From a virus, in IMG/VR virus record IMGVR_UViG_3300020196_000003: 64,000 bases of DNA. One strand, 5' to 3'. Within the stretch, counting starts at the first letter, position 1, and the number at the start of each line of letters is the position of its first letter. This document shows, in pieces, positions 3,001 to 48,084 of the stretch. The position numbers and the translations under genes were made by a program. Below the pieces are notes generated by a model. The model saw only the letters and a program-made list of their open reading frames with translations, did not search any database and had not been told where the DNA came from.

Positions 3001-3374
3001 ATGTAATAATCATCACTTTTATTTGGATTTTTAACGGAGGTTAATTTAGGTTGATTAACTCCTTGACCTTGTAATGTATTTTTTCCTGTCAATTCATCAG
3101 ACCATGCGGTATCTAAAAATTTTTTATGACCAGGATTTAAAAAGTTAATTTTACCAACAGAAATTGTTCTCTGTTGGTCATTCATTGCAGAGCCAACCGC
3201 TAATTTTGTTCTTGGCAAAACGTTGCACTCCAAGTTGGCGTAAAAAATTAAATCTTCTTGTTTTACAAGTCGGTCTTTTACGTTACCCTCTTGATCAATA
3301 AGTTTGTTGGGATCAATTAAAGCTATGTTATCGTAGTCAAATTCAACAAGTATATTTTCCCCGTTATCTGCCAT
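1..3374 (-). CDS. Large baseplate hub-like structural protein, >1120 aa, runs off the left edge (partial)
   Basis: Not in the ORF track because it has no stop in the window. ATG at 3374 reads MADNGENILVEFDYDNIALIDPNK; the same frame is still open at the window edge (..QQTTGNKPFTDMTTGF). The start overlaps the end of the LysM-like gene. Function is inferred from position in the baseplate module. Confidence 0.7.
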   Translation of the reverse strand, partial: MADNGENILVEFDYDNIALIDPNKLIDQEGNVKDRLVKQEDLIFYANLECNVLPRTKLAVGSAMNDQQRTISVGKINFLNPGHKKFLDTAWSDELTGKNTLQGQGVNQPKLTSVKNPNKSDDYYITQNLWSNGRPGAVDNGFLGITNIRFSLGTDFLPVIDIELEDVKGRALFEGGNNSPYSAFFQLPYPQFTLTMKGYYGKAVKFPIMLQSFSSKFNSTTHNFDITLKFYGYKYTLLSYVNFGSLMAVPHMYNNVVNLASASKTQGSQTKEESIQKPKIVSRGYQKMKEIYSDYKSKGLIPDNFPELTLNQLNFRLQKFIDNVLNDFAKENLGVLTEMTNYTNALTLYQQKVFLYGSSWFNTYMDTKVPIVLNSGQNLYFFKTEYDAQKRETAITELNGIILENNKRLNENSVFGEKGSYTVGTKVVQSKISVPIDIKTFTKKELITNVDIEKSFRNVPNSPKGQLSPANTPISSVTSTDIAYQIYKGTLEDLFKLVDGVFYFFEGPKSFMSITDNIGKSAQKFRTQIEQQITENLASKFNSQGKGSLGFTPSIRNILAVFYCQGEAFLRLMDEVHKKAWEQRENPYRKAAIFGNQTTAPSVDIKGSTQNNEPIYPWPQVIQETVGDDNQEKFQIIYPGAQNVANSYRAYNPEIWPEVEFVEQFIKGYTQRQNDADKSAAEFNELDSQPSRISLNGIDFPISNEVFQNKEESKYFYEIYERIILNSYFSRLNRKSGYDLSIYEAEGDDEAVNILKSLGQDNPFLAKTIKEYLLDSNNYVPFLRHISNQGQGESWQSFIRGQFVTNYIKNDVENPNVLFNEDIIISTKSQPNVSVSNPKNITNLTKYFENSSVSNTFEFGDTYPITDLKWDKKNLADGKSLNNANEVFDTQKVLNYNTVQLTITNFTEDNDDNKVRPFTHFNFLDLNVNSSISNLKSFYKDRQLKDQLITEGNILYENYNENITQTQTTSMLNTPYFINAIQQGVFNFRYKQNDPYPYKTAAYLFLNSLPLGTLREKYKTFDGQAITDLSYILATIKKFGAVHKLPYAWILKYGSIWHRYKIYDNTGKDFIDDVWKDFNYLENWDPGFSSSTKTFNLNIDGNQKNLVLQQTTGNKPFTDMTTGF

Positions 3375-12163: not shown

Positions 12164-12274
12164 GTTTTAATTTTTTTTTAATTTTGTTTTATTTTTTATT
12201 ATAAATATGAAGTTTTGAAAAATTTTCTATTTACTTCGAATTTTTTTTAAATTAATTATTATTTAGTGGTTTAA

Positions 12275-13105
12275 TTATTTAAATTTAGTTTTTTTTCCAC
12301 CTCCTGTATGATAAATATCTAATCCTGATTCATCATCAAAATTTCTTTTCATCGCTCGAACGTTTTTTAAATCATCATCTGAAAATCCAATATATGGAGT
12401 AAAGTGATTACTTATTTTGTTCTTCAGATAAGCCTTTTCTTGTAGTCTTTGAGATAGTGTCCTAATATACTCCATAAACTGTTTCATCGCACTTACTTTA
12501 AGTTCTTCAGGATTCGCAGCAGAACCCTCACCGAAAGTGACAGGATGATACTTACACATTTCTAAATAAGATTGGATCAATTCTTCATCGGACAAATCTT
12601 CCTCATCATTTATTTCACGATATTTTCGAAGATTTTTTACTAACTTATCTTTATCTAATCCATGTTTATTTTTTTTTATAAGTTGATATATTGTAGTTTT
12701 AAATATACTTGGTGTGTGTCCTCTTGCGGTAATTATTGAAAAAATTGATCCGTTATTTACTGCCTCCACAAAATCGGGCCAAGCAGGACCTACAGGTGAA
12801 TTCATAGAATCAATCAAAAATTGATCATCATATGTTACACCAAACTCTATGTAATCATCTTTTGCCGTACCGATTATAGTATGTCCTTTATAATTAAAAG
12901 GTTTTTTTCCTACAATTTCTCTATATTTAGCAAAATCTTTTGTGGTCATACCAACAACATTTCCTTCATCATCCTTTAGACGGATAAAAGTTGGCATATA
13001 CATTAAATTATCATCCCAGTCAAACGCATAATATTTCATTGTTGGTGTCAGTTGGTCTTGTATTATTTCTGATATAATACCTCTTACTAATTTTTTATAG
13101 TCCAT
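12275..13105 (-). CDS. HAD-superfamily phosphatase-like protein
   Basis: Motif I FDWDDN, motif II ITARG, motif IV FSDDD. Confidence 0.65.
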   Translation of the reverse strand: MDYKKLVRGIISEIIQDQLTPTMKYYAFDWDDNLMYMPTFIRLKDDEGNVVGMTTKDFAKYREIVGKKPFNYKGHTIIGTAKDDYIEFGVTYDDQFLIDSMNSPVGPAWPDFVEAVNNGSIFSIITARGHTPSIFKTTIYQLIKKNKHGLDKDKLVKNLRKYREINDEEDLSDEELIQSYLEMCKYHPVTFGEGSAANPEELKVSAMKQFMEYIRTLSQRLQEKAYLKNKISNHFTPYIGFSDDDLKNVRAMKRNFDDESGLDIYHTGGGKKTKFK

Positions 13106-32264: not shown

Positions 32265-33509
32265 TTATAAATTTCCAACAATCCTTTCACACCAATCTTT
32301 TGAAATTGAGTGAGGCCAAACAACCCAATAGGAAGGTATTTTTGTCGTTGGGAATTCTCTCCATATTTTACCATAACCATCAGGATCATTTTTAATTCTT
32401 ACAATTTCATTTGCGTCGGCATCTTGTCTAAAAATTGTTTCATGTTCTTTATCGTGAAATGCCACGACCCAAAAGTCATAATCGGTTTCGGTAACTTTAT
32501 TTAAATCCAAATCAATACAATGTTTAAAAATTGTTGAAAATGTTTTTTTCCATGATTCCTCGTTTTCAAAATTGTACGTGTTTGGTGGATATTTTTTATC
32601 CAAAGTTTCTTGTTGAACCGCTCTTGTTCTGAATAATATTCCTGCGTATTTTTCATAGTCTTGTACAGTCCTTTCAGACCCAAACCATAATGAATAATTA
32701 CCATCAAAAGTTTCACCATCTATACCTAATAACTGTCTGTTTTTAATGTGACAAGCAGTGTTTCTCAAATGCCAATCTTTATCATCATCCCATTGTTTTG
32801 TTCTACCTTTTCTTGTGTATTCATGCCAAATCAAAACTTTATGTGGATGAAATAAGTCATAACCATGTGTATATGATCTTACCGTAATTGAAATTTCCTC
32901 ACCATGAAAATAAAATTCAGGATCGTGTTGGACTTCAATTGAAAATTGTCCTATCGTGAAACAATAGTGTGCGGAATAAAATCTAGCAGGAATAGGTTCT
33001 TTCATTTCCCTCCATCCTGGTATAATTTCGGGTAAAAAGAATACAACTCCTTCAGGTGTAAATCTATCGAATACCATTCTCCACGGTTCCATAATGCGAG
33101 CGGCGGGATCATTATCAGGATCAAATGATGATACATATCCTGTAAGTAATGGTTTTTTATGCCCTTTCTTTTGAAGTTGTTTAATCATTTTAATCATTTC
33201 TTCGTCCCAATTTTTTTCGAATCTCATATGAGAATCAATTTGTAAAGTATATTCTTCTCCACCATACATTTGTTGGACTTGGTGTCTAGCCCAACAAACA
33301 CCTTTCGATTCCGTATATGGAATGTTTAATATTTTGAATCTTTTGTCTTTGGAATATTTTGATAAATCATCAAAACCATCTTCAGGATGAAATTGTCTTG
33401 CAATACCGAATCTAAGATTTCTTGGTTTTTTTGCATTTTCCAACATGTTTTCAATTGTTTGGATCAATTGTGGGTCTCTGTACGACGCGATTTGTACAAA
33501 TATTTTCAT
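32265..33509 (-). CDS. GT60-family (Skp1/polypeptide alpha-GlcNAc transferase-like) glycosyltransferase
   Basis: IFVQIASYRDPQL, GVCWAR, LQIDSHMRF, FHGEEI..R.YTHGYD..P, WHEY signatures. Confidence 0.85.
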   Translation of the reverse strand: MKIFVQIASYRDPQLIQTIENMLENAKKPRNLRFGIARQFHPEDGFDDLSKYSKDKRFKILNIPYTESKGVCWARHQVQQMYGGEEYTLQIDSHMRFEKNWDEEMIKMIKQLQKKGHKKPLLTGYVSSFDPDNDPAARIMEPWRMVFDRFTPEGVVFFLPEIIPGWREMKEPIPARFYSAHYCFTIGQFSIEVQHDPEFYFHGEEISITVRSYTHGYDLFHPHKVLIWHEYTRKGRTKQWDDDKDWHLRNTACHIKNRQLLGIDGETFDGNYSLWFGSERTVQDYEKYAGILFRTRAVQQETLDKKYPPNTYNFENEESWKKTFSTIFKHCIDLDLNKVTETDYDFWVVAFHDKEHETIFRQDADANEIVRIKNDPDGYGKIWREFPTTKIPSYWVVWPHSISKDWCERIVGNL

Positions 33510-33546: not shown

Positions 33547-33843
33547 TTAAGGACCTTCAAAGATATAAATTGACGCATCTTGGAATAAAAAGATAGGAAA
33601 GTCTTGAAACATTTTCCCATAAATTTTTTGGCAGTTAAGAGTATATATTTTTTCACAACCAGCACCATCAACAATTTTTAATATGATTGGTGTTGTGTTG
33701 TCTAATGGAAATGGTATGTCAAATGTAAAAGGACCACCAACGATTGTTGCAACAAAAAAACAATAAGTTATGGTTGCATCACATACATAGATATCAAATG
33801 GTGATGTTCCCGAAATTGAATTTATTTGTAATTGATTTGGCAT
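33547..33843 (-). CDS. Small putative virion protein (98 aa)
   Basis: Beta-rich and Cys-containing; preceded by the TATTTAT motif. Confidence 0.5.
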   Translation of the reverse strand: MPNQLQINSISGTSPFDIYVCDATITYCFFVATIVGGPFTFDIPFPLDNTTPIILKIVDGAGCEKIYTLNCQKIYGKMFQDFPIFLFQDASIYIFEGP

Positions 33844-33874
33844 TAAAGTCGGTATTGTTTTTAGATAAATATTA

Positions 33875-34003
33875 CTACCCGACTATTTCAATAACTTTTT
33901 GATATACCTGAAGAACTGACGGGTGACATTCAAATTTTTCTTTTCTTTCTAAACAACCAACCAAAGAAGGAATACCTTGTATTGATCCCCACTCTCTAAC
34001 ACC
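33875..34003 (-). pseudogene. Orphan C-terminal 42 codons of a GT9-like gene
   Basis: GVREWGSIQGIPSLVGCLERKEKFECHPSVLQVYQKVIEIVG* is 29/42 identical to the end of 43768-44757 (encoded at 44572-44697 on the opposite strand); no start codon. Confidence 0.9.
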
Positions 34004-34184
34004 AACAGTAACTCAAACGGCTAGTTTGACACCGAGTCATACACCAACGCCAACAGTTACACCATCATACCATCCATGTGGATATCAACCAATTATTGTA
34101 ATACCAAGCCCAAGTAATTATAGGACACCAACACCAACACTAACACCGAACATCAACCCGTGTTTGTTGAGAAGTCTTCAATGA
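33996..34184 (+). pseudogene. Orphan C-terminal fragment of a Pro/Thr-rich protein
   Basis: LTPTVTQTASLTPSHTPTPTVTPSYHPCG..TPTPTLTPNINPCLLRSLQ*; in-frame stop at 33924 and no ATG; same architecture as the C-terminus of 45422-45844. Confidence 0.75.
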
Positions 34185-34258
34185 CAAAAATAATAAATTA
34201 CAATAATTATAATGATATATAGATTTAGTTTCCAAGTCATAAATATTTATAGTTTAAG

Positions 34259-37200
34259 ATGCCACAATATAATAGATTAACTGATAGGTCGAGAGTTTCT
34301 GCGGTCACACTGAATGACATTATACATGTTGTTGTTACTGGTGATACATCACAGAGTCCTCAGGGATCATCATATTTTGCACCTTTAAGTGATTTACAAT
34401 CAATATTAAGCGGATCAAGTGGTACCAATGGTACTTCAGGAACAAATGGAACTAGCGGTACTAATGGTACCTCAGGAATTAATGGGACTAGTGGTTCTTC
34501 AGGAACTTCTGGCTCATCAGGAATAAGTGGAACATCGGGTTCTTCAGGAACAAGTGGTGTTTCAGGTACCAATGGATCAAGTGGTTCAAGCGGTACAAGT
34601 GGAATTAATGGTACATCAGGATCTTCAGGTATTGATGGTAGTAGTGGAACTTCAGGTTCAAGTGGAACCAATGGTACTAGTGGTACAAATGGTTTTGACG
34701 GAACATCAGGATCATCAGGAACTAGTGGTTCTTCAGGATTAAGTGGAACAGATGGTACGTCGGGAAGTTCTGGAACAAGCGGAACAGATGGTACTAGCGG
34801 TACGAATGGAACAAGCGGAACAGATGGTAGTTCAGGAACTAGCGGAACTTCAGGTTCAAGCGGTATTGCTGGGACTAGCGGAACTTCAGGTTCTTCAGGG
34901 ATAGACGGAACAAGTGGTACTTCAGGTTCTTCAGGTATTGACGGCACTTCAGGAACATCGGGATCAAGCGGAACAAGTGGTACTAATGGAACTGATGGGT
35001 CTAGCGGTACGGATGGAACTAATGGGTCAAGTGGAACTTCAGGAACCAACGGTACAGATGGAAGTAGTGGAACATCAGGTTCTAGTGGAACAAATGGTAC
35101 TAGCGGGTCATCCGGATCTAGCGGTACATCAGGGTCAAGTGGAACTAATGGTACTAGCGGGTCTTCAGGTACATCAGGAACTAACGGTACTAATGGAACA
35201 AGTGGAAGTAGCGGTACGGACGGAACATCAGGGTCTTCAGGAACTAATGGGACATCAGGTACAAATGGTACATCAGGAACCAATGGAACTTCAGGAACGA
35301 ACGGTACAAATGGTACATCAGGAACCAATGGAACTTCAGGGACAAGTGGAAGTAGCGGTACCGACGGAACATCAGGGTCTAGCGGTACTAGCGGAAGTTC
35401 GGGAACAAATGGAACATCAGGGTCTAGCGGATCAAGTGGTAGTTCAGGTTCTAGCGGTACAGACGGTACTTCAGGTACTTCAGGTTCAAGTGGTATAGAC
35501 GGTACATCAGGTACATCAGGGAGCTCAGGCTCAAGCGGAACAAGTGGTTCTTCAGGCTCTAGTGGAACAAATGGTTCTTCAGGAACCTCAGGAACTAGCG
35601 GCTCTTCAGGTACAGATGGTACAAGTGGAACAAGTGGTTCATCAGGGACTAGCGGTTCTTCAGGAACAAGTGGTTCATCAGGAACTAGCGGTTCTTCAGG
35701 AACAAGTGGTTCATCAGGTACCTCAGGTTCTAGTGGAAGTTCAGGTACAGATGGTACATCAGGAACAAGTGGTTCTTCAGGTTCTAGTGGAAGTTCAGGT
35801 ACAGATGGTACATCAGGAACAAGTGGTTCATCAGGAACAAGTGGAAGTTCAGGTACAGATGGTTCATCAGGAACAAGCGGTTCATCAGGTACTTCAGGAA
35901 GTTCAGGTTCATCAGGTACTTCAGGAAGTTCAGGTTCATCAGGTACTTCAGGAAGTTCAGGTTCATCAGGTACTTCAGGAAGTTCAGGTTCATCAGGAAC
36001 AGATGGTACAAGTGGTACAAGCGGCTCATCAGGAACAAGCGGTTCATCAGGTACATCAGGGAGCTCAGGTTCAAGCGGAACAAGCGGTTCATCAGGTACT
36101 TCAGGAAGTTCAGGTTCATCAGGTACTTCAGGAAGTTCAGGTTCATCAGGAACAGATGGTACTTCAGGTACATCAGGTTCTAGTGGCTCATCGGGTTCCT
36201 CTGGAACAAGTGGTTCTTCAGGAACCTCAGGTTCTAGCGGCTCATCGGGTACTGATGGCACGTCTGGTACAAGTGGATCATCAGGAACAGATGGTACAAG
36301 TGGATCATCAGGAACAGATGGTACAAGTGGTACATCAGGAAGTTCAGGTACAAGTGGTTCTTCAGGTTCATCAGGAACTTCAGGAAGTTCAGGCTCCTCA
36401 GGTACAAATGGTACTTCAGGGACTGATGGGACTAGCGGAACATCAGGTTCTTCAGGAACTAGCGGAAGCTCAGGTTCTTCAGGAACTAGCGGAAGCTCAG
36501 GTTCTTCAGGAACTAGCGGAAGCTCAGGTTCATCAGGCACTTCAGGTAGCTCAGGTTCTTCAGGAACTAGCGGAAGCTCAGGTTCTTCAGGAACTTCAGG
36601 AAGTTCAGGTTCTTCAGGTACAAATGGTACTTCAGGGACTGATGGGACTAGCGGAACATCAGGTTCTTCAGGAACTAGCGGAAGCTCAGGTTCATCAGGC
36701 ACTTCAGGTAGCTCAGGTTCTTCAGGAACTAGCGGAAGCTCAGGTTCTTCAGGAACTTCAGGAAGTTCAGGTTCTTCAGGAACTTCAGGAACTTCAGGTA
36801 CAAGTGGAACAAATGGAACCAGCGGAACTAATGGTACTTCAGGGACAAATGGTACTAGCGGTAGTTCAGGGACAAATGGTACATCAGGTACTAATGGAAC
36901 TAGCGGGACAAATGGGACAAGCGGAACTAGTGGGACCAACGGCACATCAGGGTCTAGTGGAACAAATGGAACTTCAGGCTCAAGCGGTACCAATGGAACA
37001 TCAGGAAGTTCGGGCACGAATGGTACAAGTGGGTCTTCAGGCACTAACGGTACGTCAGGAACTAATGGAACCTCAGGAACGAACGGTACGAATGGTACTT
37101 CAGGAACAAATGGAACATCAGGTACTAATGGAACAAATGGTACTAGCGGTACAAATGGAACATCAGGTACAAACGGAACATCAGGTACCAACGGTACTAG

Positions 37201-38953
37201 TGGAACGTCGGGAACAAATGGAACCAACGGTACAAGCGGTACCAATGGTACAAGTGGAACTAACGGAACTAGTGGTACAAACGGAACAAATGGTACTTCA
37301 GGCACAAACGGAACCTCAGGAACAAATGGAACCAACGGTACAAGCGGTACAAATGGAACATCAGGTACCAACGGTACTAGTGGAACGTCGGGAACAAATG
37401 GAACCAACGGTACAAGCGGTACCAATGGTACAAGTGGAACATCGGGCACAAACGGAACCTCAGGAACAAATGGAACCAACGGTACAAGCGGTACAAGTGG
37501 AACCAACGGAACTTCAGGTACAAACGGGACAAATGGTACTAGCGGAACTAACGGTACTTCAGGTGTTAACGGAACAAGTGGTACAAATGGTACTTCAGGC
37601 ACTAACGGTACGTCAGGAACAAATGGAACTAGTGGTACATCACCGTCGGTACCGGGAGGGGGGGGCAAAGTTTTAACATCAGATGGGTTGGGTGGGATTA
37701 CGGCAGAATCAAATTTAACTTTTGATGGTACAGAATTAATCGTGACAGGTTATCAAAGAGTTGTTGATACAGTGGGAGGGGCACTTGGAAGTTTAAGAGT
37801 GGATAGTGCTGTCACTAACTTTTTACACAACGCAATATCTGTAACCAATACAGGAGATTTTACTAACACAAATTCATTAGTGGGTGTTAATGTGGATGTT
37901 ACGGATGGTATTTTTTCTAACACATGTTTTGCAGGTTCAACATTTTCCGCATACGGTAGTAATTATGGTATCGATTTGAGAAACAGTTCCACCGAAACCG
38001 GTTCTTCACAATACGGAGCGTCAGTTAGTGTAAACGGTTCAGGACCAACAGAAAAGTATGGGTATTATGGTTCTGTTAGTAATACTTCAGATTATAATTA
38101 TGGTGTTTATGTCAATGTTGAGGACGCGACTGTGGAGAACTACGGACTTTATTCAAGAATTGCTAGTAGTGTTGGAGACACATACGGGTTTTATATATCA
38201 AATACAGGTACGGATTCAGGTGGTTCTGATTTACATTATGGTGGAAAAATTCTTGTTAGTGGTATAGGTCAACCAACAAGTACAGTAAAATACGGGTTGG
38301 AAATTGATTTGACTGGTGATGCAAAAATTAATTATGGAGTTCACATTGATGTTGCAGGCGCAACAGACAATTTTAGTATTGTTACTCAAAATGGTTTTGC
38401 AATTTTTAATAACCTTGGCACATCAACCGCAGATTTTCAAGTCAAAGGAGACACGGATGATAATCTTATTTATGTTGATGCCTCCACAGATAATTTAGGG
38501 ATTGGGACAAACTTACCATCAAGAAAATTACATGTAAATGGTGATTATACTTTTGTTCACAACCCAACTTCAGAATTAACTTCATCTGTTAGTGGTTATG
38601 GTGATATAGTAACATTTGGTTCGGGAAGTTTAACAGCAGGTGATTTATACTATTTGACAAGTTTGGGGTCTTGGTCGGCAACTGATGCAGATGCAGCGTC
38701 AACAGCAACAGGAATGTTAGCGTTTGCGTTGGGGTCCTCCGCATCGGACGGTATGTTAGTTAGAGGTTATATTAGAAATTCAGGATTTACAACAAATACA
38801 GGTAACATAGTCTATGTCTCAACAACCACAGGTGCTGTAACTACAACCGCACCATCAGGTAGCGGAGACATTATTAGAATTATTGGTTATAGTATAGACG
38901 GAACAAATGAAATAATTTATTTTAACCCTGATAATAGTTGGGTAGAGGTTTAA
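34259..38953 (+). CDS. 1564 aa Gly-X-Y repeat fibre protein with beta-repeat and C-terminal globular domains
   Basis: Residues 52-1128 are Gly-X-Y repeats (GTS/GSS/GTN/GTD); then repeated xYG beta-strands, an LGIGTNLPSRKLHVNG motif and a C-terminal domain resembling capsid-cement-like folds. Confidence 0.85.
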   Translation: MPQYNRLTDRSRVSAVTLNDIIHVVVTGDTSQSPQGSSYFAPLSDLQSILSGSSGTNGTSGTNGTSGTNGTSGINGTSGSSGTSGSSGISGTSGSSGTSGVSGTNGSSGSSGTSGINGTSGSSGIDGSSGTSGSSGTNGTSGTNGFDGTSGSSGTSGSSGLSGTDGTSGSSGTSGTDGTSGTNGTSGTDGSSGTSGTSGSSGIAGTSGTSGSSGIDGTSGTSGSSGIDGTSGTSGSSGTSGTNGTDGSSGTDGTNGSSGTSGTNGTDGSSGTSGSSGTNGTSGSSGSSGTSGSSGTNGTSGSSGTSGTNGTNGTSGSSGTDGTSGSSGTNGTSGTNGTSGTNGTSGTNGTNGTSGTNGTSGTSGSSGTDGTSGSSGTSGSSGTNGTSGSSGSSGSSGSSGTDGTSGTSGSSGIDGTSGTSGSSGSSGTSGSSGSSGTNGSSGTSGTSGSSGTDGTSGTSGSSGTSGSSGTSGSSGTSGSSGTSGSSGTSGSSGSSGTDGTSGTSGSSGSSGSSGTDGTSGTSGSSGTSGSSGTDGSSGTSGSSGTSGSSGSSGTSGSSGSSGTSGSSGSSGTSGSSGSSGTDGTSGTSGSSGTSGSSGTSGSSGSSGTSGSSGTSGSSGSSGTSGSSGSSGTDGTSGTSGSSGSSGSSGTSGSSGTSGSSGSSGTDGTSGTSGSSGTDGTSGSSGTDGTSGTSGSSGTSGSSGSSGTSGSSGSSGTNGTSGTDGTSGTSGSSGTSGSSGSSGTSGSSGSSGTSGSSGSSGTSGSSGSSGTSGSSGSSGTSGSSGSSGTNGTSGTDGTSGTSGSSGTSGSSGSSGTSGSSGSSGTSGSSGSSGTSGSSGSSGTSGTSGTSGTNGTSGTNGTSGTNGTSGSSGTNGTSGTNGTSGTNGTSGTSGTNGTSGSSGTNGTSGSSGTNGTSGSSGTNGTSGSSGTNGTSGTNGTSGTNGTNGTSGTNGTSGTNGTNGTSGTNGTSGTNGTSGTNGTSGTSGTNGTNGTSGTNGTSGTNGTSGTNGTNGTSGTNGTSGTNGTNGTSGTNGTSGTNGTSGTSGTNGTNGTSGTNGTSGTSGTNGTSGTNGTNGTSGTSGTNGTSGTNGTNGTSGTNGTSGVNGTSGTNGTSGTNGTSGTNGTSGTSPSVPGGGGKVLTSDGLGGITAESNLTFDGTELIVTGYQRVVDTVGGALGSLRVDSAVTNFLHNAISVTNTGDFTNTNSLVGVNVDVTDGIFSNTCFAGSTFSAYGSNYGIDLRNSSTETGSSQYGASVSVNGSGPTEKYGYYGSVSNTSDYNYGVYVNVEDATVENYGLYSRIASSVGDTYGFYISNTGTDSGGSDLHYGGKILVSGIGQPTSTVKYGLEIDLTGDAKINYGVHIDVAGATDNFSIVTQNGFAIFNNLGTSTADFQVKGDTDDNLIYVDASTDNLGIGTNLPSRKLHVNGDYTFVHNPTSELTSSVSGYGDIVTFGSGSLTAGDLYYLTSLGSWSATDADAASTATGMLAFALGSSASDGMLVRGYIRNSGFTTNTGNIVYVSTTTGAVTTTAPSGSGDIIRIIGYSIDGTNEIIYFNPDNSWVEV
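34412..37642 (+). repeat. 9-bp period coding repeat, 359 Gly-X-Y triplets
   Basis: 3231 nt = 359 x 9; contains 27-bp tandem copies (about 35881-35990) and 216-bp and 180-bp block duplications. Confidence 0.95.
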
Positions 38954-38957
38954 TAAT

Positions 38958-39473
38958 ATGACAAAATTTAACGGTTTTGATTTTTATGATAAAAAACAAG
39001 TTGTTCTAACAAGTGGGATTCCAAGTGCATATGTTAATGCGGCATCCAATACAAAAATCACTTCGGTATTTGTTCCAGCAAATACCTTTGCGGCTGGTGA
39101 TATTTTGAGTATAGAGTGGGTTATTCGGTTAACAGGTGCAACTTCAGGAAACACTACTCTTTTTTTGTATTGGAATGAGACAGATGATTTAACAACACCG
39201 ACTCAGTTACAAACTCGTAATACCTCCAATGCGACTGTTAGTAAGAGGAATTCTCTTAATAGGAGACTTTCAATTGCCGTTGCTAATGGAACAGGTAATG
39301 GGTCAATTATGTATGGTGTTGCCGGAGCACAAGATACAGATTTTCCTGCAGTAACTTTTGCAATATCAAGTGGATTAGTATTAAATTGGACCATAGACTC
39401 TTACATAGTGTTATCCGGTTTTTCTACTATAAATACAGGAATTAGAACAGAGTTTTTCAAAGTTAGTAATTAA
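38958..39473 (+). CDS. Fibre-associated beta protein, paralog A
   Basis: Shares S.xxPANTF..GD, RRL..GxGxG and NWT.D.Y motifs with 39736-40263 and 40256-40771. Confidence 0.7.
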   Translation: MTKFNGFDFYDKKQVVLTSGIPSAYVNAASNTKITSVFVPANTFAAGDILSIEWVIRLTGATSGNTTLFLYWNETDDLTTPTQLQTRNTSNATVSKRNSLNRRLSIAVANGTGNGSIMYGVAGAQDTDFPAVTFAISSGLVLNWTIDSYIVLSGFSTINTGIRTEFFKVSN

Positions 39474-39478
39474 AAATT

Positions 39479-39739
39479 ATGGTATATTTAGAAAAAAAAT
39501 TAAATACATTAGTTAAGTCTGTAGGTTCAGATGGGGCGTCATTTTTAGATGTCCCAAGAACTCTAACATTCACAATTGTCGATGAAGAGGGTCATAGTGG
39601 ATATTTTTCAAATAATCCAGAGGATGTTTCAATAGAATTAGAGGAAAATATTATTTTTTTCAAAGTTAAAGACACTATAATTGATAATATTGAATTTCTC
39701 GATGCTCAAACAATGATAAATTATATTTACGACTTATGA
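39479..39739 (+). CDS. Hypothetical acidic protein (86 aa), possible fibre chaperone
   Basis: Tightly packed in the fibre operon; function is a guess. Confidence 0.55.
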   Translation: MVYLEKKLNTLVKSVGSDGASFLDVPRTLTFTIVDEEGHSGYFSNNPEDVSIELEENIIFFKVKDTIIDNIEFLDAQTMINYIYDL

Positions 39740-40263
39740 CAAAGATAATAGGTTTTAATATGTATAGTCCTTTTAAGACTATTAGTTTGACAACTCCTCA
39801 ATCAACTACTTCTTCATTAACAGAAGTTAAGTTGGGATCAGTACTTGTTCCCGCCAACACATTTGGGGCTGGCGATTCTTTGAAAATCGAGTGTTTTGCG
39901 AGAAAACAAAATACAAATGCAGTATCAAACATAAGGTTGTATTGGAATACCTCTGATAGTATATCATCACCAACACCAATTAGAATTGGTGAAAATTTAG
40001 GTATTATTGCAACGGCAACAGCAATTCCAATAGTTAGAAGATTAGGTGTTGTAACATCGGATGGTTCAGGAAGCGGGTCAAGTGCCTTATTAAATACAGT
40101 TGATTTTTTTTCAGATTACATAACATCAGCGGCCGGATTGTCTTCTGACCCAAGTAATTTGGCATTAAATTGGACTGTAGATAGTTATATTATATTGGCG
40201 GGTGATGTTGATAACGCATCAGATATATTAAATTGTCAATGGATAAGAATTACAAATGGCTAA
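39736..40263 (+). CDS. Fibre-associated beta protein, paralog B
   Basis: SVLVPANTFGAGD, RRLGVVTSDGSGSG, LNWTVDSYI. Confidence 0.7.
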   Translation: MTKIIGFNMYSPFKTISLTTPQSTTSSLTEVKLGSVLVPANTFGAGDSLKIECFARKQNTNAVSNIRLYWNTSDSISSPTPIRIGENLGIIATATAIPIVRRLGVVTSDGSGSGSSALLNTVDFFSDYITSAAGLSSDPSNLALNWTVDSYIILAGDVDNASDILNCQWIRITNG

Positions 40264-40771
40264 AATAATCGGGTATAATGTTGGTGTTAAATATAAAGTT
40301 GTAACCACTACAACACCTGCGGGTAGTGTAAACTCAATTTCTAATACTTTAATTAATTCATTGTTAATTCCTGCAAATACATTTTCTTCAGGAGACATTG
40401 TTACGATAGAAACTTGTTTAACAAAAAGTGCAACTAATAATACTTTTAGTTTTTATTTTTATGTTAATACATCCGCAACACTTGTTGGTGCGACTTTAGT
40501 TGCAACAAACACATCAGTTGCAAGTAATGTAAGAGCGGCTCAACTTTATCGTAGACTTGCAGTCGATGTTGCTTCGGGTAGTGGTAATGGCACAATAATA
40601 ATAAACACATCAATAGCTGCGAGAGATGATATAGGTGTCACAAATTATACTACAGGGTTTTCTACTTTAACAACTAATTGGACTACTGACCAATATTTAA
40701 TTGTTTCAGGTTCTGTTGTTAGTACATCAGACACACTTAGTTGTCAGTGGATAAAGGCTTCGAACGGTTAA
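40256..40771 (+). CDS. Fibre-associated beta protein, paralog C
   Basis: SLLIPANTFSSGD, RRLAVDVASGSGNG, TNWTTDQYL. Confidence 0.7.
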   Translation: MAKIIGYNVGVKYKVVTTTTPAGSVNSISNTLINSLLIPANTFSSGDIVTIETCLTKSATNNTFSFYFYVNTSATLVGATLVATNTSVASNVRAAQLYRRLAVDVASGSGNGTIIINTSIAARDDIGVTNYTTGFSTLTTNWTTDQYLIVSGSVVSTSDTLSCQWIKASNG

Positions 40772-43717
40772 CTATCTATTATCTATGTAAATTATTACTT
40801 CATTATAATATTCAATGAAGTGTTCGTTCCATAAATCCCATTTTATGTCAATACCATCAACAGAGAAAACTTGGTAATTTGGAAAATTTTTAAGGTAAGT
40901 GTTTCTAAATTTTCTAAAGTTTTCTTTACTTCCTTCATAATAATTTTCATTTAAGTGCCACTCTCCTACAATTTTTTTTACATTATTTTTAATAAACTCA
41001 TAATTATCATCCGTAAAAATATCGTATTCACCACCCTCACAATCGGTTTTTAAAAAATCAATTTTATCTATATTGTATAAGTTCAAAAATTTTGCAAAAG
41101 TAATACTTTCCATTTCATTTTGTGTACCCTTTACTGAGTTGAAAAGTCTGTCGTTTTTGGTAAGACAATCACTGTTCGATATTCCTTTCATGATATGTGT
41201 CACAGGGTTTCCTATTGTATTTTTTACAAGTGTTGGAAAAAGTTCTTTACAAGGTTCGAAACAAAAAATGTGTTTTGGTTTTTTATGTAATATTGAATAA
41301 GTAAATGGCCCTAAACTTGCACCAATATCCAAAACAATGTCACCCTCCTCAACCTCGAAAAATTTTTCATATATTTTATGTTCAAAAATTTCCTTTTTTA
41401 TCGTCTCACTACACCACTCGTTATTAGTTCCCCAATCAAATAAGACCTCATGTACATGATGTGTATTTTCTTCTTTATTTATAATCTTATCTATTTCTTT
41501 TATCACCATTTCAGATGTTATTTGTTTTGAACATTCAAACATTTTTTCACTTCCTTTATGTAAAGGACACCAATTCCAATCACCGGCATCTAACCTGTCC
41601 CAATTAAAACATCCATGACATACATCTTCATTTATGACTCTATATGTATCCAAAGTTGTTTCTGTCCATTTTTTACTAAATCCCGAAATAAGAACTATTG
41701 GTAACTTACAAGCCCAAGCCAACCATGAAAGGCCTGAACCGAGACCTACAAAAAATTCACATGTTGAAAGTTCATTTATTACTTCTTGTAAATCACCCCC
41801 ATTGTATATTTTAACACCTTTTGGATAATAGTTACCCATATAACCATTTCCTTCTTTTGAATAAATTACACATTCATATCCAAGTGAATTCAAATAATCA
41901 ACAACTTCTTGCCAACCATTTTTGTTATTCCAATATTTTGCTTGAGCTGTTGAGTGAAAACCAATACCTGCTTTTTTCTTTTTTGAAACCTCAGGAAGAT
42001 TAAGTTTTGGTCTTATTTCATTATAGTCTAATCCAAGAATATCAGTTGCAGTTTTTTGTAGTGGTTGAAGTTTAAAATCATTTGGATGTCTATTTTGATT
42101 AAACTTACCACTTTCATTATAGTACCATCCAAGTTGATATTGTGCAAAGATATTATAAACAATAACCCCTGGCTCAACAAACTCTATTTCAGGGTATTGG
42201 TCAACAAACAAACTATTTAAAAAAGTTGATACAATGAGTTTGCAATTATGTTTTTTTCTAAATTCTTCGCAGTAAGGCATCCAAGCCAAAGTGTCCCCTA
42301 ATGACTTTGAGCCAAACGATATATATACTCTTTTATTTTCTAAATTTAATATATCTGAAAAAACAACATTTCCATTTTCTTTAATTTCAGTTTTCCATGC
42401 TGTAAAATATTCTCTATTAAGTTTGACCCAAGAATTCATATCAATATTGTTGTTATAAATTATATTATTTTTTTCATCATAAAATGCAACTTCAAATTTT
42501 GAATTGCCGTCACCTACTATTTCAAGATAAGGGTTTACAACAAAATGTTGGTTTATTTTATAATCCTTATCAATCTTTTTGTTTTCAACAAAATCACAAT
42601 TTTGTACTTTGTTATAAAACTTAAATAACTGATTTCCAAAACTTTCTTCTTCTTTGATAATGTAAGTTTTTTTGTCCTCGATTAATTGAATTAATTTTTT
42701 TGAAATATCTTCGAAGTTATTTGAATCAATTGGAGTAATGTAGTCATCAAACATTCCCATGTATTGAGGTAAATTTCTTGTTAAAATTTTAAGACCATAA
42801 CTTATGGACTCACGAACCACAAGAGGATTACACTCAACTAATGAATTAAACATTAAAACATCTGATGCAATCATAAAGGATTCAACATCATTTCTTTCAC
42901 CCCAAATGGTTACGTTAGATGGTAAGTTTTCCATGAGTGGACCCCAATAGTATTCAAAATTTTCGGCCTGATTTCCAACAAAATGGAATTGAATGTTTGG
43001 ATGAGTTTTTTCTAAAATACGAGCAATTTCAATACCTTCTTTTTGATTTTTTCCTTCTGTCCATAACCCAACATTAAGAACATGGGTTTTTGTTAAATCT
43101 AAACCTAATTGTTCTCTTCGATTAATTTTTTCAATCAACGGAACTTTATGTTCTGTTTTTGAAATTGTGTTTTTGTGGTATAAATAACTCACCTTATCCT
43201 CCAATGGATATGTAATGACTTCTTTAGGTGATTGTTTTTTATTATAAAGATTTTCTAAATGATATGGCGTTACAAAACAATAATAATCTGGTTCAAAATT
43301 TTTATTGTTATTTGCATTGTACCAAATATTATGACAAGACTCAACAATTTTATAAGACCTATTGTTATTATAAATCTCGTTTAAAATATTAAGAGGTATT
43401 TTGTTAAAACTTTCAAAACCTTCAGGTACTTCTTCGAAATGAACAATATCTATATTGTTATTTTTTATTATATCAAATAACTCTATTTTTTTTTCTTTTT
43501 CTGTAAAAGAACCAAGAGAAATGAAATGATTATTTCCTAACAAATCTATAATTTTATTTCTTTGTACCAAATAAATTGTGCTAAACTGCGAATATTCAAC
43601 CAAATATACTTCAATTTCATTTTTGAATTTTTGCAAAGATTCAATTCTTTTTAATACAAATTGTGGCATCCCTCCTGTTGAAAGGTGAGGAACCACATAC
43701 ATCAACTTTAATTTCAT
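40772..43717 (-). CDS. Fusion of GT4-like glycosyltransferase, AAH/TibC-like autotransporter O-heptosyltransferase and FkbM methyltransferase
   Basis: PHLSTGGMPQ..ECNPLVVRESISYG (GT-B); SLGDTLAWMPY, GLGSGLSWLAWA..VLISGFS, CHGC..WCP..FECSKQI (BAHT iron-finger cysteines); LDIGASLG..LKTDCEGGE (FkbM). Confidence 0.85.
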   Translation of the reverse strand: MKLKLMYVVPHLSTGGMPQFVLKRIESLQKFKNEIEVYLVEYSQFSTIYLVQRNKIIDLLGNNHFISLGSFTEKEKKIELFDIIKNNNIDIVHFEEVPEGFESFNKIPLNILNEIYNNNRSYKIVESCHNIWYNANNNKNFEPDYYCFVTPYHLENLYNKKQSPKEVITYPLEDKVSYLYHKNTISKTEHKVPLIEKINRREQLGLDLTKTHVLNVGLWTEGKNQKEGIEIARILEKTHPNIQFHFVGNQAENFEYYWGPLMENLPSNVTIWGERNDVESFMIASDVLMFNSLVECNPLVVRESISYGLKILTRNLPQYMGMFDDYITPIDSNNFEDISKKLIQLIEDKKTYIIKEEESFGNQLFKFYNKVQNCDFVENKKIDKDYKINQHFVVNPYLEIVGDGNSKFEVAFYDEKNNIIYNNNIDMNSWVKLNREYFTAWKTEIKENGNVVFSDILNLENKRVYISFGSKSLGDTLAWMPYCEEFRKKHNCKLIVSTFLNSLFVDQYPEIEFVEPGVIVYNIFAQYQLGWYYNESGKFNQNRHPNDFKLQPLQKTATDILGLDYNEIRPKLNLPEVSKKKKAGIGFHSTAQAKYWNNKNGWQEVVDYLNSLGYECVIYSKEGNGYMGNYYPKGVKIYNGGDLQEVINELSTCEFFVGLGSGLSWLAWACKLPIVLISGFSKKWTETTLDTYRVINEDVCHGCFNWDRLDAGDWNWCPLHKGSEKMFECSKQITSEMVIKEIDKIINKEENTHHVHEVLFDWGTNNEWCSETIKKEIFEHKIYEKFFEVEEGDIVLDIGASLGPFTYSILHKKPKHIFCFEPCKELFPTLVKNTIGNPVTHIMKGISNSDCLTKNDRLFNSVKGTQNEMESITFAKFLNLYNIDKIDFLKTDCEGGEYDIFTDDNYEFIKNNVKKIVGEWHLNENYYEGSKENFRKFRNTYLKNFPNYQVFSVDGIDIKWDLWNEHFIEYYNEVIIYIDNR

Positions 43718-43767
43718 AATTTGAAAATAATTTATTCATATTATTTGTGAAGTTTCTTACATTTTAA

Positions 43768-44757
43768 GTGATGAAAAAAGTTTGTTTGGATTTATCTCAA
43801 TCAAGAGCTCTTGGTGATACATTATGTTCAACACCAACGATTAGAAAATTATATAATTCTTATAATCAAAAAATTTCCATTATAACTCACCACAAAGAAA
43901 TTTTTAAAAACAATCCATATGTTGATGTTATTTTCGATGTTGATGTGGAAAATCTAACAGATGAGTATGAAATTTTTAATTCCTTTGATGTTTTTTATAA
44001 ACCAAATGGTGTTTGTAATAAACATAATGTTATGGATATACGACAATTTCATGCAATTAATCTTGGGTTCATGTTAACAAAAAATGAAATGACCTTAGAT
44101 TATATTCCATCACAAACTTCAATTATGAAAGAAATTCCAAGAAAATATGTTTTAATTCATCCCGTACAGAATTGGAATTCAAGAACTTGGTCAATTGATA
44201 ATTGGAGGGTACTAACAAAATTATTAAACGAGCAAAATATAAATGTGGTTTCAATTGGAAAAAATTCATCTGAGTTTGGAGGTTCAAATGTGGAAAAACA
44301 TGTTTTTGATTTTGATATTGATTTGGGGGTTAATTTAATGAACAAAACAACTTTAGATGAAACATGGAACTTGATTGAATATTCATTGTGTTTTGTTACA
44401 ATGGACTCAGGACTTTTACATTTGGCAGGAACAACCGATGCTCAAATAATTCAACTTGGAAGTTCAATAAACTATGAATTTAGAGCTCCTTATAGAAATG
44501 GTTCACAAGATTACAAATATTCTTACGTTGGTGGTGGTTGTAATTTGGCATGTGCTTCTGATATGAAACATGGGGTAAAAGAATGGGGGTCAATTCAAGG
44601 GATACCCCCACTTGTTAATTGTTTAGAAAATAAAAAATCATTTGAATGTCATCCTACGGTATTACAGGTATATAGAAAAATAATGGAATTACTGCAGTCT
44701 GTATTTATAATATATGGCAACATTCAAGACATGAATTTTTTTCAAGTCAAAGTTTAA
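43768..44757 (+). CDS. GT9-family glycosyltransferase with a Cys-rich C-terminus
   Basis: ALGDTLCSTP, FVTMDSGLLHLAGT, C.LAC..C..FECHP; the last ~14 codons run across the cassette junction. Confidence 0.8.
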   Translation: MMKKVCLDLSQSRALGDTLCSTPTIRKLYNSYNQKISIITHHKEIFKNNPYVDVIFDVDVENLTDEYEIFNSFDVFYKPNGVCNKHNVMDIRQFHAINLGFMLTKNEMTLDYIPSQTSIMKEIPRKYVLIHPVQNWNSRTWSIDNWRVLTKLLNEQNINVVSIGKNSSEFGGSNVEKHVFDFDIDLGVNLMNKTTLDETWNLIEYSLCFVTMDSGLLHLAGTTDAQIIQLGSSINYEFRAPYRNGSQDYKYSYVGGGCNLACASDMKHGVKEWGSIQGIPPLVNCLENKKSFECHPTVLQVYRKIMELLQSVFIIYGNIQDMNFFQVKV

Positions 44758-45328
44758 TTTTTCTTTGGTTTGAATTTTTTTAAGTATTGATGGTTTTTTG
44801 TTTTCAATTGGGTATTGAAGAACTTTTTTATAAACTTTTTCTAATTCGAACGTTTTTAAATGATATGGAGTTACAAACAAATATGAGTCAGGACGAAATT
44901 TTCTGTTTTTTGGATCAAACCAAATGTTATGACATGTCTCAACAATCTTCCAAGTTCTTTTGTTATCATATAACTCGGTAAGAATACTAATTGGAATTTG
45001 ATTGAAACTTTCAAACCCTTCAGAAATTTCTTCAATGTGAACAATATCAATTTGATTTTTTTTTATGATATCAACTAACTTATTTTTTTTTTTCGATATG
45101 GTTTGGTGTTCCCAAAGAATAAAAATTATCTTCACCGATTAGGTCTATTATTTTATTTCTTTGGACAACATATTGATTACCAAAATAAGAATATTCAACA
45201 ACGTTTACTTTAAAATTATTATATAAAGATTGAATTCTTTTCAATGCAAATTGGGGCATCCCACCTGTTGATAAGTGAGGAACAACGTATAATATATTAA
45301 TTTTTATCGATAGAAAATTTTGTTTCAT
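44689..45328 (-). pseudogene. Truncated, frameshifted paralog of the GT4 N-terminus of 40772-43717
   Basis: YVVPHLSTGGMPQF and EGFESFN..VETCHNIW; frameshift in an A11 run (45083-45093); homology ends abruptly at HVLNV (about 44718). Confidence 0.85.
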
Positions 45329-45421
45329 TTAACTTAATAATAAAAAACATTTAAAAAAAATCATTTATTTATTATTAATTTCGAACTATTTGAAATTAAA
45401 ATCGATCTTTTACTTAAAAAA

Positions 45422-45844
45422 TTATTGTGTAATACACGGATTCCAACTTGGTGTTGGTGTTGGACTGTTGCTCACGGTAGGGGTTGGAGTTGGGGTTGAT
45501 GTTGTGGTTGGTGTTAATGTTGGAACTTTACAAGGATCGATAGATGGTGTTGGTGTTATCGTTGAAGTTGGAGTTGGTGTGGGGGTTTTTGTTGGAGTAA
45601 TAGTCGGAGTTGGTGTAGGAGTCGGTCTAACAACATCTAAAAAATAAGGACAATTAGAAAAAACAGGTTTGATAGTATATGATCCATATATTTCTCTTGG
45701 TGGATATAATAAATGAGGTTCAAATAAGAATGGTAATGTTATTTCGTGTAAATTAATGACAACATCATCATTGTCTGGTTTGAATAACACTTCTGCTAAT
45801 TCACCATCATAAAAAACACTTCGAATTATTATATTTTGACTCAT
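45422..45844 (-). CDS. Small protein with a mucin-like Pro/Thr C-terminus
   Basis: PTPTPTPTITPTK..TPSIDPC..TPSWNPCITQ. Confidence 0.75.
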   Translation of the reverse strand: MSQNIIIRSVFYDGELAEVLFKPDNDDVVINLHEITLPFLFEPHLLYPPREIYGSYTIKPVFSNCPYFLDVVRPTPTPTPTITPTKTPTPTPTSTITPTPSIDPCKVPTLTPTTTSTPTPTPTVSNSPTPTPSWNPCITQ

Positions 45845-48031
45845 CTATGTATTAATTATTGTGTATGTAAAATCATTAGGGAAACATGATGATGTGTCAC
45901 ATACAGGACAATCGGGGTCGAACATGCTAAACTTATCTTTTAATATTTTAAAATTGTGTTTCACCTCAGGACTAGAAATAGGTTGAGTATAAAATCTAAA
46001 TTGAGAAATTGCACCGTCTAAAGTTCCTGCAAAATTTTCTTCCAATAAAATGTGTGTTTTCAATTTATTTAAAGTTGTTGCACTCAATATGTTTTCAGGA
46101 AAACATTCGGGATCTTGAATATAATACCCTTCTGACGTATCGGTACAAGAAGATAAGGTAAGATTTTCATGAAGTCCTTGAGTTCCCCCACCCCAAGACA
46201 TATTGAACGGAACGGCCACTTGTCTTTCTTTGTCGGTGTCTAAAGCCCTCGGAATTACTTCTTCAAAATTTTCGATAGTATAAAATATTCTTCCATTGAT
46301 ATAGATTTTTAATCTACCCAACCTAAATTTAGTTTCATCTAACCAAATTCGATTTAGTTGGACTATCTTTACTTGTTGTGGGATTTCATATCCATTTGTG
46401 TAAGGAGGTTGGATTAAGGATACTGTGTTATTTGCCAAACTTTGTAAAAACTCTACTCTTGTTATTTGATCTAATCCACCAAACCATCTGAGGTCACAAA
46501 AATCTATAAAAGTATAACGTTCGAAAACAACATCCAATAAGAACCAATGCTCTAAGTTTAACCAAGCTGGATTTACTTCTAAACAATAAGGATAAATTGG
46601 TGGCGTACAAATATCTTGTATTGTATATCCAGTGACATAAGTTTGACCTGTTACACATGTTCCAGTAGTTTGACATTCTCCTGTAATTTTCAAAACTCGA
46701 ATTCCAATACCAGGATTTTTTGGGTCGCCACACAAACGGATAGAAAAATTATTTGACAAAGCGTCAAATTTTGGATCTTTTTCACAAGTATCCTCTATTG
46801 ATTTAAAGACATTGGAAGGTTCAGTTGGCGGACATCCACAAGTATCACAACCACAACTTGGACATGCCGTACAACAAGGTTTTGTTGGGCATGGTATCAC
46901 ATCAGAATATGTATCACATGATGGAGTTGGTGATGGAGTAGGTGTTGGTGTTGGTGTCGGGACAATTATTGTTTCACACTTATGTTCGAAACACATCCAT
47001 CCACAGGTTTTACAGGGGTCCAAATCACAACCGCATCCACATGTCAGTTTTGTTTCATAATTCCCATTACATAAGTTACATCCGTAATTCACATGAGGAT
47101 CGTATTCACCACCAATTGGTCTCGGCGGATATACGTAAATACATCTACTATTTTTGATATCATAATTACAACAAGCACAAGTTTCGAAACAATTAGTTAA
47201 ACCACTTGTAACTCTCGTATAATTTGAGTCGCATTTTGGTGAACCATCGGCATAATGATAAAATTTATTTTCTGCTCTTGTTCCCAAATAGAATAACGTA
47301 TTTTTGTTTTTTGGATAAATTTCATTCAAAGTTGTATATCCAACAGGTGGGTTGTATTCATTAAAAAATCTTGGTTTTAACAAAACTTCAACTGACCATC
47401 CTTTATTGAATCGTTCAGGTAATATTTCATAGTCATAACCAAATAATTTATAAAAACCTTGATAAAATCCACCATATAGTTCAATGTATCTCCCAACTTG
47501 GGGACTATACTTAGAAACCATTTCGTAAGAAGTGTAGTAAGTAACACCTGAAAATTTATTGTTCTTTGGTACATTTGTTGTTGTTTGAATAAGTTTCATT
47601 CTTCGGTCATAAAACATTCTATTAAATTTTACTTCATCACTAAAAAGTCCGTTTGTAAAATTTAATAATTCACCTTCAATTAAATTTACCAATCCGTTAT
47701 CAACTCCCGTTAATCCAATATCACAAGTTGTTCCAGCGGTGAAACATTCAATTCTTAAATCCTCGGGTTGATAAAAAGTTTCAGATATAACAACATTTTC
47801 AAAATTGTAGGACCCATAGTTTAATGTTAAATTTAAGGAAGATAGAGGGCTATTCAAATCAATATTAATGGGTAATTTTTTACCGTCATTAACACCTATT
47901 ATATATGGTGAAAAAATAACTTCTTGATTGAAGTCGACCTCATCGGAAGCTAAAGACATATCTTGTCCATCATAAAGGACTTGTAATTTTAACTTTGGGT
48001 AAATATATTGATTTATATTTTGATAAGACAT
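45845..48031 (-). CDS. 728 aa putative virion protein: LamG/ConA-like fold interrupted by a Cys-rich and Pro/Thr insertion
   Basis: GWSVEVLL, HWFLLDVVF, LKIYINGR, GAISQFRFYTQPISSPEV; central cluster of more than 20 Cys. Confidence 0.6.
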   Translation of the reverse strand: MSYQNINQYIYPKLKLQVLYDGQDMSLASDEVDFNQEVIFSPYIIGVNDGKKLPINIDLNSPLSSLNLTLNYGSYNFENVVISETFYQPEDLRIECFTAGTTCDIGLTGVDNGLVNLIEGELLNFTNGLFSDEVKFNRMFYDRRMKLIQTTTNVPKNNKFSGVTYYTSYEMVSKYSPQVGRYIELYGGFYQGFYKLFGYDYEILPERFNKGWSVEVLLKPRFFNEYNPPVGYTTLNEIYPKNKNTLFYLGTRAENKFYHYADGSPKCDSNYTRVTSGLTNCFETCACCNYDIKNSRCIYVYPPRPIGGEYDPHVNYGCNLCNGNYETKLTCGCGCDLDPCKTCGWMCFEHKCETIIVPTPTPTPTPSPTPSCDTYSDVIPCPTKPCCTACPSCGCDTCGCPPTEPSNVFKSIEDTCEKDPKFDALSNNFSIRLCGDPKNPGIGIRVLKITGECQTTGTCVTGQTYVTGYTIQDICTPPIYPYCLEVNPAWLNLEHWFLLDVVFERYTFIDFCDLRWFGGLDQITRVEFLQSLANNTVSLIQPPYTNGYEIPQQVKIVQLNRIWLDETKFRLGRLKIYINGRIFYTIENFEEVIPRALDTDKERQVAVPFNMSWGGGTQGLHENLTLSSCTDTSEGYYIQDPECFPENILSATTLNKLKTHILLEENFAGTLDGAISQFRFYTQPISSPEVKHNFKILKDKFSMFDPDCPVCDTSSCFPNDFTYTIINT

Positions 48032-48084
48032 GCGTTTTTCTTATAAATACAACAATTGAAAGTATTTATTGTAAAAAATATAAC

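Follow-up and report, generated by a model that had tools for sequence, protein, structure and literature searches.

A reversed fibre and glycosyltransferase module in a freshwater jumbo phage, probably acquired by microhomology-mediated illegitimate recombination

Introduction

The reshuffling of phage genomes is attributed mainly to rare non-homologous joins, few of which persist. Exchange of tail fibres of the T4 type is usually described as homologous, taking place at conserved motifs and in the same orientation. Non-homologous joins that still show both scars, and for which relatives of each parental type have been sequenced, are to our knowledge seldom caught. Here we analyse two such joins in a 64,000-nucleotide (nt) stretch of viral DNA (IMG/VR record IMGVR_UViG_3300020196_000003; hereafter the window, with positions counted from its first letter). 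The joins enclose a block of 10.7 kb (34004-44717) with a collagen-like fibre gene, four small fibre-associated genes (F1-F4), the glycosyltransferase fusion gene E981, and the glycosyltransferase gene GT9. The whole block is inverted with respect to the backbone genes that flank it on the left and right. We consider it most probable (about 0.8) that a resident module was replaced by microhomology-mediated illegitimate recombination, and that the arrangement is a recombination scar and not a device.

Results

Parental types and gene remnants at the two joins

The relatives of the window are contigs of up to 296 kb from uncultured freshwater phages; their loci are given L numbers below. Along the window, the nearest relative switched abruptly at the joins, and L074, L080, and L121 each covered one segment. 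Positions 45967-44718 were collinear with L074 (80.1% over 1288 nt; the match stops at 44718), positions 41260-44730 with L080 (84.5% over 3482 nt; the match stops at 44730), and positions 34003-32266 with L121 (77.7% over 1754 nt, starting at 34003). The overlap of the parental homologies is 13 nt at the right join and does not exceed 7-8 nt at the left. L074 has the resident-type order of the right side, with A728, PT140, and a full-length GT4 fusion gene on one strand. L121 has the resident-type order of the left side (GT9, J98, K414), and its GT9 C-terminus is 90% identical to the remnant in the window. The donor order is present in L080, L079, and L010.

An initial annotation, made from the letters alone, had described an inverted cassette of about 10.7 kb with gene fragments at both joins. 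This description was borne out by self-BLASTN, by the remnants themselves, and by a census of gene orientation in relatives. Self-BLASTN of 33-46.5 kb returned two significant repeats outside the collagen-like run. The inverted one pairs 33884-34004 with 44691-44571 (72.7% of 121 nt), while the direct one pairs 43252-43699 in E981 with 44853-45289 in a GT4 remnant (72.6% of 452 nt). Remnants without apparent function occupy the joins (a GT9 3' end of 42 codons, a Pro/Thr-protein 3' end of 62 codons, and a frameshifted GT4 5' end). They belong to lineages other than those of the window's intact genes.

At the left join, the orphan GT9 C-terminus does resemble the end of the intact GT9, as had been claimed, with 29 of 41 residues identical to residues 269-309 (71%; BLASTP E 7e-23). 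Identity to L121 and L115 is 90% at the amino acid (aa) level and 89.6% at the nt level, and in 68 of 72 relatives the 3' end of GT9 resembles the remnant more closely than that of the window's own GT9 does. The remnant meets a Pro/Thr-protein 3' end on the opposite strand, and the few overlapping bases noted earlier are those at 33996-34003. Resident homology begins at GGTGTTAGAG of GT9, and the AACACCA on the other strand comes from the donor Pro/Thr repeat, with at most 7-8 bases shared. We assigned the Pro/Thr remnant to the PT140 family because it has the two-Cys C-terminal layout of short-form PT140 proteins, matches PT140 homologues by tblastn (54% over 54 aa), and is followed by an intergenic spacer and fibre start like those of the PT140-fibre junction in L010 (78% over 114 nt).

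At the right join, GT9 has lost its own stop. Codon 310 is CAG (44695-44697) where L079, L080, and L128 have TAG, and translation would continue across the donor intergenic motif and the opening bases of the gene that follows in the donor, running on in sequence antisense to the GT4 remnant and gaining a 19-aa tail. Most GT9 homologues among the 120 matches listed have 308-312 aa and cover 93-94% of the 329 aa in the window; a single one is a partial sequence of 253 aa. After the TAG, L079, L080, and L128 continue with TCTGTATTTATAATATATG and then CCGACTTCAAGACC, the beginning of a gene which starts MPTSRPF; 19 nt are identical in the window. The TATTTAT and ATGGCA at this point are accordingly the donor intergenic motif and the start of the next gene, much as the initial annotation had supposed. 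GT9 matches to residues 320-322 in the same three loci were considered as a common junction and rejected, as tblastn had read through a stop. The lost stop sits in CTGCAG (44692-44697) where relatives have GTTTAG; these three substitutions in 6 nt create a palindrome, which is probably due to chance.

The GT4 paralogue had been described as truncated at HVLNV, and its match to all homologues indeed stops right after these residues, before most of its GT4 domain. The remnant is 80-87% identical (aa) to the full-length L074 gene and 47-60% identical to the window's own E981.

Table 1. Coordinates of the joins, the remnants, the genes of the block, and the flanking genes
Feature	Position	Strand	Description
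Left junction	33996..34003		8 nt (CTAACACC) common to both remnants; microhomology of at most 7 nt (TGGTGTT / AACACCA)
Resident GT9 3' remnant	33875..34003	-	42 codons and own stop (33875-33877), without start codon
Donor Pro/Thr-protein (PT140 family) 3' remnant	33996..34184	+	62 codons and stop
Donor intergenic region	34185..34258	+	74-nt spacer; promoter-like motif ATATTTATA 15 nt 5' of fibre ATG
Right junction	44718..44730		13 nt (CAACATTCAAGAC), imperfect, align to both parental types
Donor intergenic motif GTATTTATA and ATG of donor's next gene	44698..44717	+	Now orphan, facing antisense of resident genes
Resident GT4 (E981' subfamily) 5' remnant	44718..45328	-	About 227 codons; frameshift in 11-T run 45083-45093
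Fibre, 1564 aa	34259..38953	+	Conserved N-terminus, long proline-free Gly-X-Y run, variable C-terminal domain
F1-F4	38958..40771	+	Three paralogous 171-175-aa proteins and one of 86 aa; always 3' of fibre
E981	40772..43717	-	981 aa; fusion of GT4, GT9-like domain, and FkbM methyltransferase (Pfam PF00534, PF01075, PF05050)
Donor GT9	43768..44757	+	Pfam PF01075; intact, own stop lost, 19-aa tail added
K414	32265..33509	-	N-acetylglucosamine (GlcNAc)-type glycosyltransferase (Pfam PF11397, E 1e-67); resident backbone, left flank
J98	33547..33843	-	98 aa; after GT9 in most relatives; resident
PT140 and A728	45422..48031	-	Resident backbone, right flank; 140-aa PT140 at 45422-45844

The joins on independent contigs

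The window derives from metagenomic data and its nearest relatives differ between block and flanks, as they would in an assembly chimera of two co-occurring strains, an alternative which the initial annotation had itself raised. We followed the joins into other assemblies, where their copies were located solely through protein-cluster look-ups. The 148-aa open reading frame (ORF) of the GT4 remnant, including its junction-derived tail, is identical on 20 contigs, and J98 is identical on at least 24 (many JGI samples, one ENA assembly, and Logan runs). A 601-nt window across the left junction and a 901-nt window across the right one were 100% identical on 11 of 11 retrieved contigs, over as much of each window as the contig spans (L160 and L161 stop within the right one). 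These 11 contigs otherwise differ by single-nucleotide polymorphisms, with overall identities of 97.3-100% (up to 2.7% difference). The joins recur in assemblies from at least nine JGI samples as well as ENA and Logan. A search of IMG/VR with exact junction patterns found none, and a scan of JGI metagenomes with GT9 gave no contig with a junction-spanning peptide.

The longest exact runs common to the repeats are 12-14 nt, which leaves no shared repeat of assembler k-mer length at the joins. Identical joins in independent JGI, ENA, and Logan assemblies, on contigs which vary elsewhere, together with exact repeats of so short a length, refute the chimera, whose probability we regard as negligible. 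The arrangement is fixed in a natural population.

Gene order in relatives and a stepwise origin

A single inversion in cis was rejected on logic, as neither the 3' part of GT4 nor the 5' part of the resident GT9 is present at the opposite join. With these reciprocal gene halves missing, the arrangement must stem from a replacement, or from an inversion accompanied by deletions.

We took a census of gene layout by tblastn of the window's proteins against 158 related loci, the synteny comparison which the initial annotation had proposed. No diverged relative among them shares the window's arrangement. The canonical order is A728, PT140, a variable stretch of 0-7 kb, fibre, F1-F4, E981 (on the opposite strand), GT9, one gene, J98, K414, M555, and N347. 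GT9, J98, and K414 are syntenic in more than 30 loci, GT9 and K414 lie on one strand in 42 loci, and the fibre N-terminus and A728 share a strand in each of the seven loci holding both. Other layouts also occur. L074 (9241-16928) has A728, PT140, and E981' on one strand, followed in reverse orientation by a fibre and a J98-PT fusion, and it lacks a separate GT9. In a clade of seven loci (L059/L060, L123-L127), GT9 and E981 are co-directional and both opposite to K414. The GT9 3' end is a repeated breakpoint in this phage group.

These reversed cassettes speak for a stepwise history in one lineage, which we nevertheless consider unlikely. Its ancestor would have carried both paralogous sets (PT140/GT4' and PT140/fibre/E981/GT9) together with a second GT9, and would then have undergone inversion plus deletions, or inversion between the GT9 copies. 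At least three events would be needed where one or two suffice for replacement, and no intermediate was found among 169 loci. The ingredients do exist: E981 and PT140 paralogues coexist in single relatives, two E981 genes are present on the L027/L073 contig, and in L067 GT9 is followed by a PT140-like gene. The remnants, however, share 87-90% aa identity with genes of other phages and only 47-71% with the intact copies in the window, which argues against descent from sets already present in one genome.

The PT140 family occurs in two forms, as a short protein (140-144 aa) and as the N-terminal part of larger ones (at least 500 aa) whose Pro/Thr linkers are very long (L008, L011, and L014, from about 12200-12400 on). 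The long form accounts for the variable 7 kb between PT140 and fibre in some relatives.

The block as an invertible segment

The initial annotation had also suggested that the inverted homologies might allow re-inversion, swapping the GT9 C-terminus. In its strongest form, the block would be a programmed or recurrent invertible segment like Mu G or P1 C, flipping between the GT9 inverted repeats to give an alternative GT9 C-terminus and a re-oriented fibre module. The two inverted GT9 3' ends are in frame, a flip between them would restore the canonical order of GT9 and J98, and the orientation of the cassette varies among relatives. Phage recombinases are moreover able to recombine sequences that are 22% diverged, and homeologous recombination in phages has been discussed in the same work (PMC2327257).

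The sequence features of a switch were not found. Pfam scans of the block, the flanks, and other large ORFs of the window gave no serine or tyrosine recombinase and no resolvase or integrase family. One of these scans covered 35 ORFs and listed the best 25 of 33 families; 19 of the ORFs were rescanned singly, and the other 16 (mostly long ORFs) were covered by that scan alone. There are no short near-identical inverted crossover sites at the block borders, where the sole repeat is that of 121 nt, with arms 73% identical and a longest exact run of 12 nt. Every retrieved contig has the block in one orientation with identical joins, although assemblies report the majority form only. No flipped copy was found on these contigs, and no differing neighbourhood was flagged among the sets of 20 and 24 contigs. 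A flip would in addition put junk between PT140 and fibre. The proposed re-inversion thus found no support, and we judge a switch of this kind very improbable. Rare flipping between arms 27% diverged is not impossible, with nothing in its support.

A looser version has a similarly slight chance of being correct, namely that the fibre/glycosyltransferase cassette is a recurrent flip-prone unit. The window, L074, and the seven-locus clade each have a different reversed layout, and the diverged GT9 repeats might allow rare recombinase-driven flips. If this were so, a flip would restore the canonical order, and the alternative GT9 C-terminus would hold two of the four conserved GT9 cysteines. The locus would then resemble a Mu G switch that works slowly, through homology, and whose target is an enzyme of virion glycosylation.

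Content of the block

The genes of the block are not all nearest to the same relative. L080 is the nearest relative for the fibre C-terminus, E981, and GT9, and L037 (75-90%) for F1-F4, so the block is itself mosaic. The claim that fibre, tip proteins, and glycosyltransferases moved as one unit thus stands for the last event only, and not for the history of the block as a whole.

The 50 N-terminal residues of the fibre are 84-92% identical to those of relatives, where they lie on the backbone strand, and its C-terminal domain is 82% identical to that of L080. Near-identical strains differ in the length of the Gly-X-Y fibre, with 1564 aa in the window (34412-37642), 1651 aa in L162 (4630-9585), and 1786 aa in L163 (4225-9585). 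This reflects either a repeat-number polymorphism or collapse of the repeat by the assembler.

The paralogues F1, F3, and F4 have invariant PANTF, RR, and NWT motifs. An AlphaFold2 model of F4, of moderate confidence (predicted local distance difference test score 69.6), has an all-beta jelly-roll fold and weakly matches two TNF-like lectins, BC2L-C and PLTL (E about 1e-3, template modelling score 0.47-0.58). Judging from this model, F1, F3, and F4 may be sugar-binding fibre-tip proteins.

E981 is 76% identical to its homologue in L080 and 83% to that in L075, and the intact GT9 is 91-93% identical to those of L075, L079, and L080. A sequence search of the PDB with GT9 gave no match at E 0.01, so that sequence lends no support to an assignment to the TibC/Aah type. 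In L075, the closest GT9 relative (93% aa), the gene 3' of GT9 is Pyr_excise (T4 endonuclease V-like) on the opposite strand (2543-3031), and the window's left-flank genes are absent after it.

The phage and its promoter-like motif

The window is AT-rich (about 30% GC). Pfam scans of its ORFs identified a tail sheath, a gp19-like tube, a T4-like baseplate protein, a terminase, a family-B DNA polymerase, and many glycosyltransferases. The phage is an uncultured freshwater jumbo myophage, and the tube, baseplate, and sheath matches give it a T4-like structural background. One large ORF has a LAGLIDADG_3 match (E 5.8e-11), a possible sign of a homing endonuclease or of an intein within a replication gene. 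A megablast search of INPHARED with the 22-kb region gave a single 56-nt match and no close relative, and a PHROGs search returned no match for the fibre C-terminus, F1-F4, J98, A728, or GT9.

A motif survey located ATATTTAT(A) 11-28 nt 5' of many structural genes on the coding strand, including fibre, J98, and A728 (e.g. 34236-34244, 33869-33876, 48046-48053, and 44701-44709). We propose it as a candidate late-promoter element of this phage group. The copy at 44701-44709 is an orphan which faces antisense into the GT4 remnant, PT140, and A728. A scan for sigma-70 promoters and terminators gave no signal above shuffled background.

Discussion

Both joins lie in short stretches which fit both parents, the signature of microhomology-mediated illegitimate recombination. 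Under this explanation, the resident would have had A728, PT140, and the GT4-fusion paralogue on one side, and GT9, J98, and K414 on the other. The stretch between about codon 228 of the GT4 gene and a point about 42 codons short of the end of GT9 would have been lost. A block from another lineage within this phage group would have taken its place in reverse, extending from the last 62 codons of a PT140-like gene through fibre, F1-F4, E981, and GT9 and including the first ~17 nt of the gene that follows. The simplest route would be two template switches (or break-joins) guided by microhomology during replication in a mixed infection, the first onto the opposite strand of a co-infecting donor and the second back. 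Because the fibre has its own promoter-like motif, the recombinant would have been viable, and it now dominates a natural population.

Several observations weigh against this explanation. Compared directly, the Pro/Thr remnant and the 140-aa protein (45422-45844), whose likeness the initial annotation had pointed out, match weakly and in sequence of low complexity (E 0.007), so that the assignment of the remnant to PT140 rests on the cysteine layout, the tblastn match, and the L010-like spacer. Reversed cassette layouts arose more than once (L074 and the seven-locus clade), and some of the reversal may predate the event. The nearest sequenced pieces are 80-93% identical, and the actual donor and recipient are not among the sequenced relatives. 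Lastly, several events could have left the same pattern as one, though we favour one.

The inference of the initial annotation that a related phage's block had overwritten the resident order backwards agrees with L074, L121, and L080/L079/L010. Its description of the two blocks as syntenic does not, as the overwritten GT4 gene belongs to the paralogous E981' subfamily. By analogy with L074, the replaced resident segment may itself have held a reversed fibre.

Acquisition of a new fibre, with its fibre-associated proteins and associated glycosyltransferases, would be expected to change host recognition, and the fibre/glycosyltransferase region stands out as the hypervariable host-interaction locus of this phage group. 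The locus is a resolved natural example of a reversed 10.7-kb receptor-binding and glycosylation module, with microhomology at both ends, loss of a stop codon, and fixation in a lake population. It could serve as a teaching or benchmark case for methods which detect recombination breakpoints.

Among known systems, the likeness to the invertible segments of Mu (G/Gin), P1 (C/Cin), and p15B (Min) is one of layout only. They have in common a reversed fibre segment and inverted repeats in the 3' end of a gene, such that a flip would alter the C-terminus. In the window, however, no invertase or conserved crossover sites were found, the repeats are 73% identical remnants of different lineages, and a single orientation was seen. 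Fork stalling and template switching (FoSTeS) and microhomology-mediated break-induced replication (MMBIR) in cellular genomes share the outcome of an inverted insertion, microhomology at both breakpoints, and loss of the intervening DNA, here that of the resident. The template in the present case would instead be the genome of a co-infecting phage, and the route is read from the end product only. Domain shuffling of T4-type tail fibres shares the T4-like structural background and the hypervariable fibre locus, but the window's joins are non-homologous and its block is reversed.

The closest match is the mosaic module exchange described by Hendrix and Juhala. Its features recur here: abrupt switches of nearest relative at gene boundaries or within genes, leftover fragments, few shared bases, and tail-fibre cargo. 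The window differs in that its block is reversed relative to the backbone, that both scars and relatives of both parental types are still visible, which is uncommon, and that it comes from an uncultured freshwater jumbo myophage. It is a well-resolved but ordinary instance of phage mosaicism, an event of a known kind which calls for no new mechanism.

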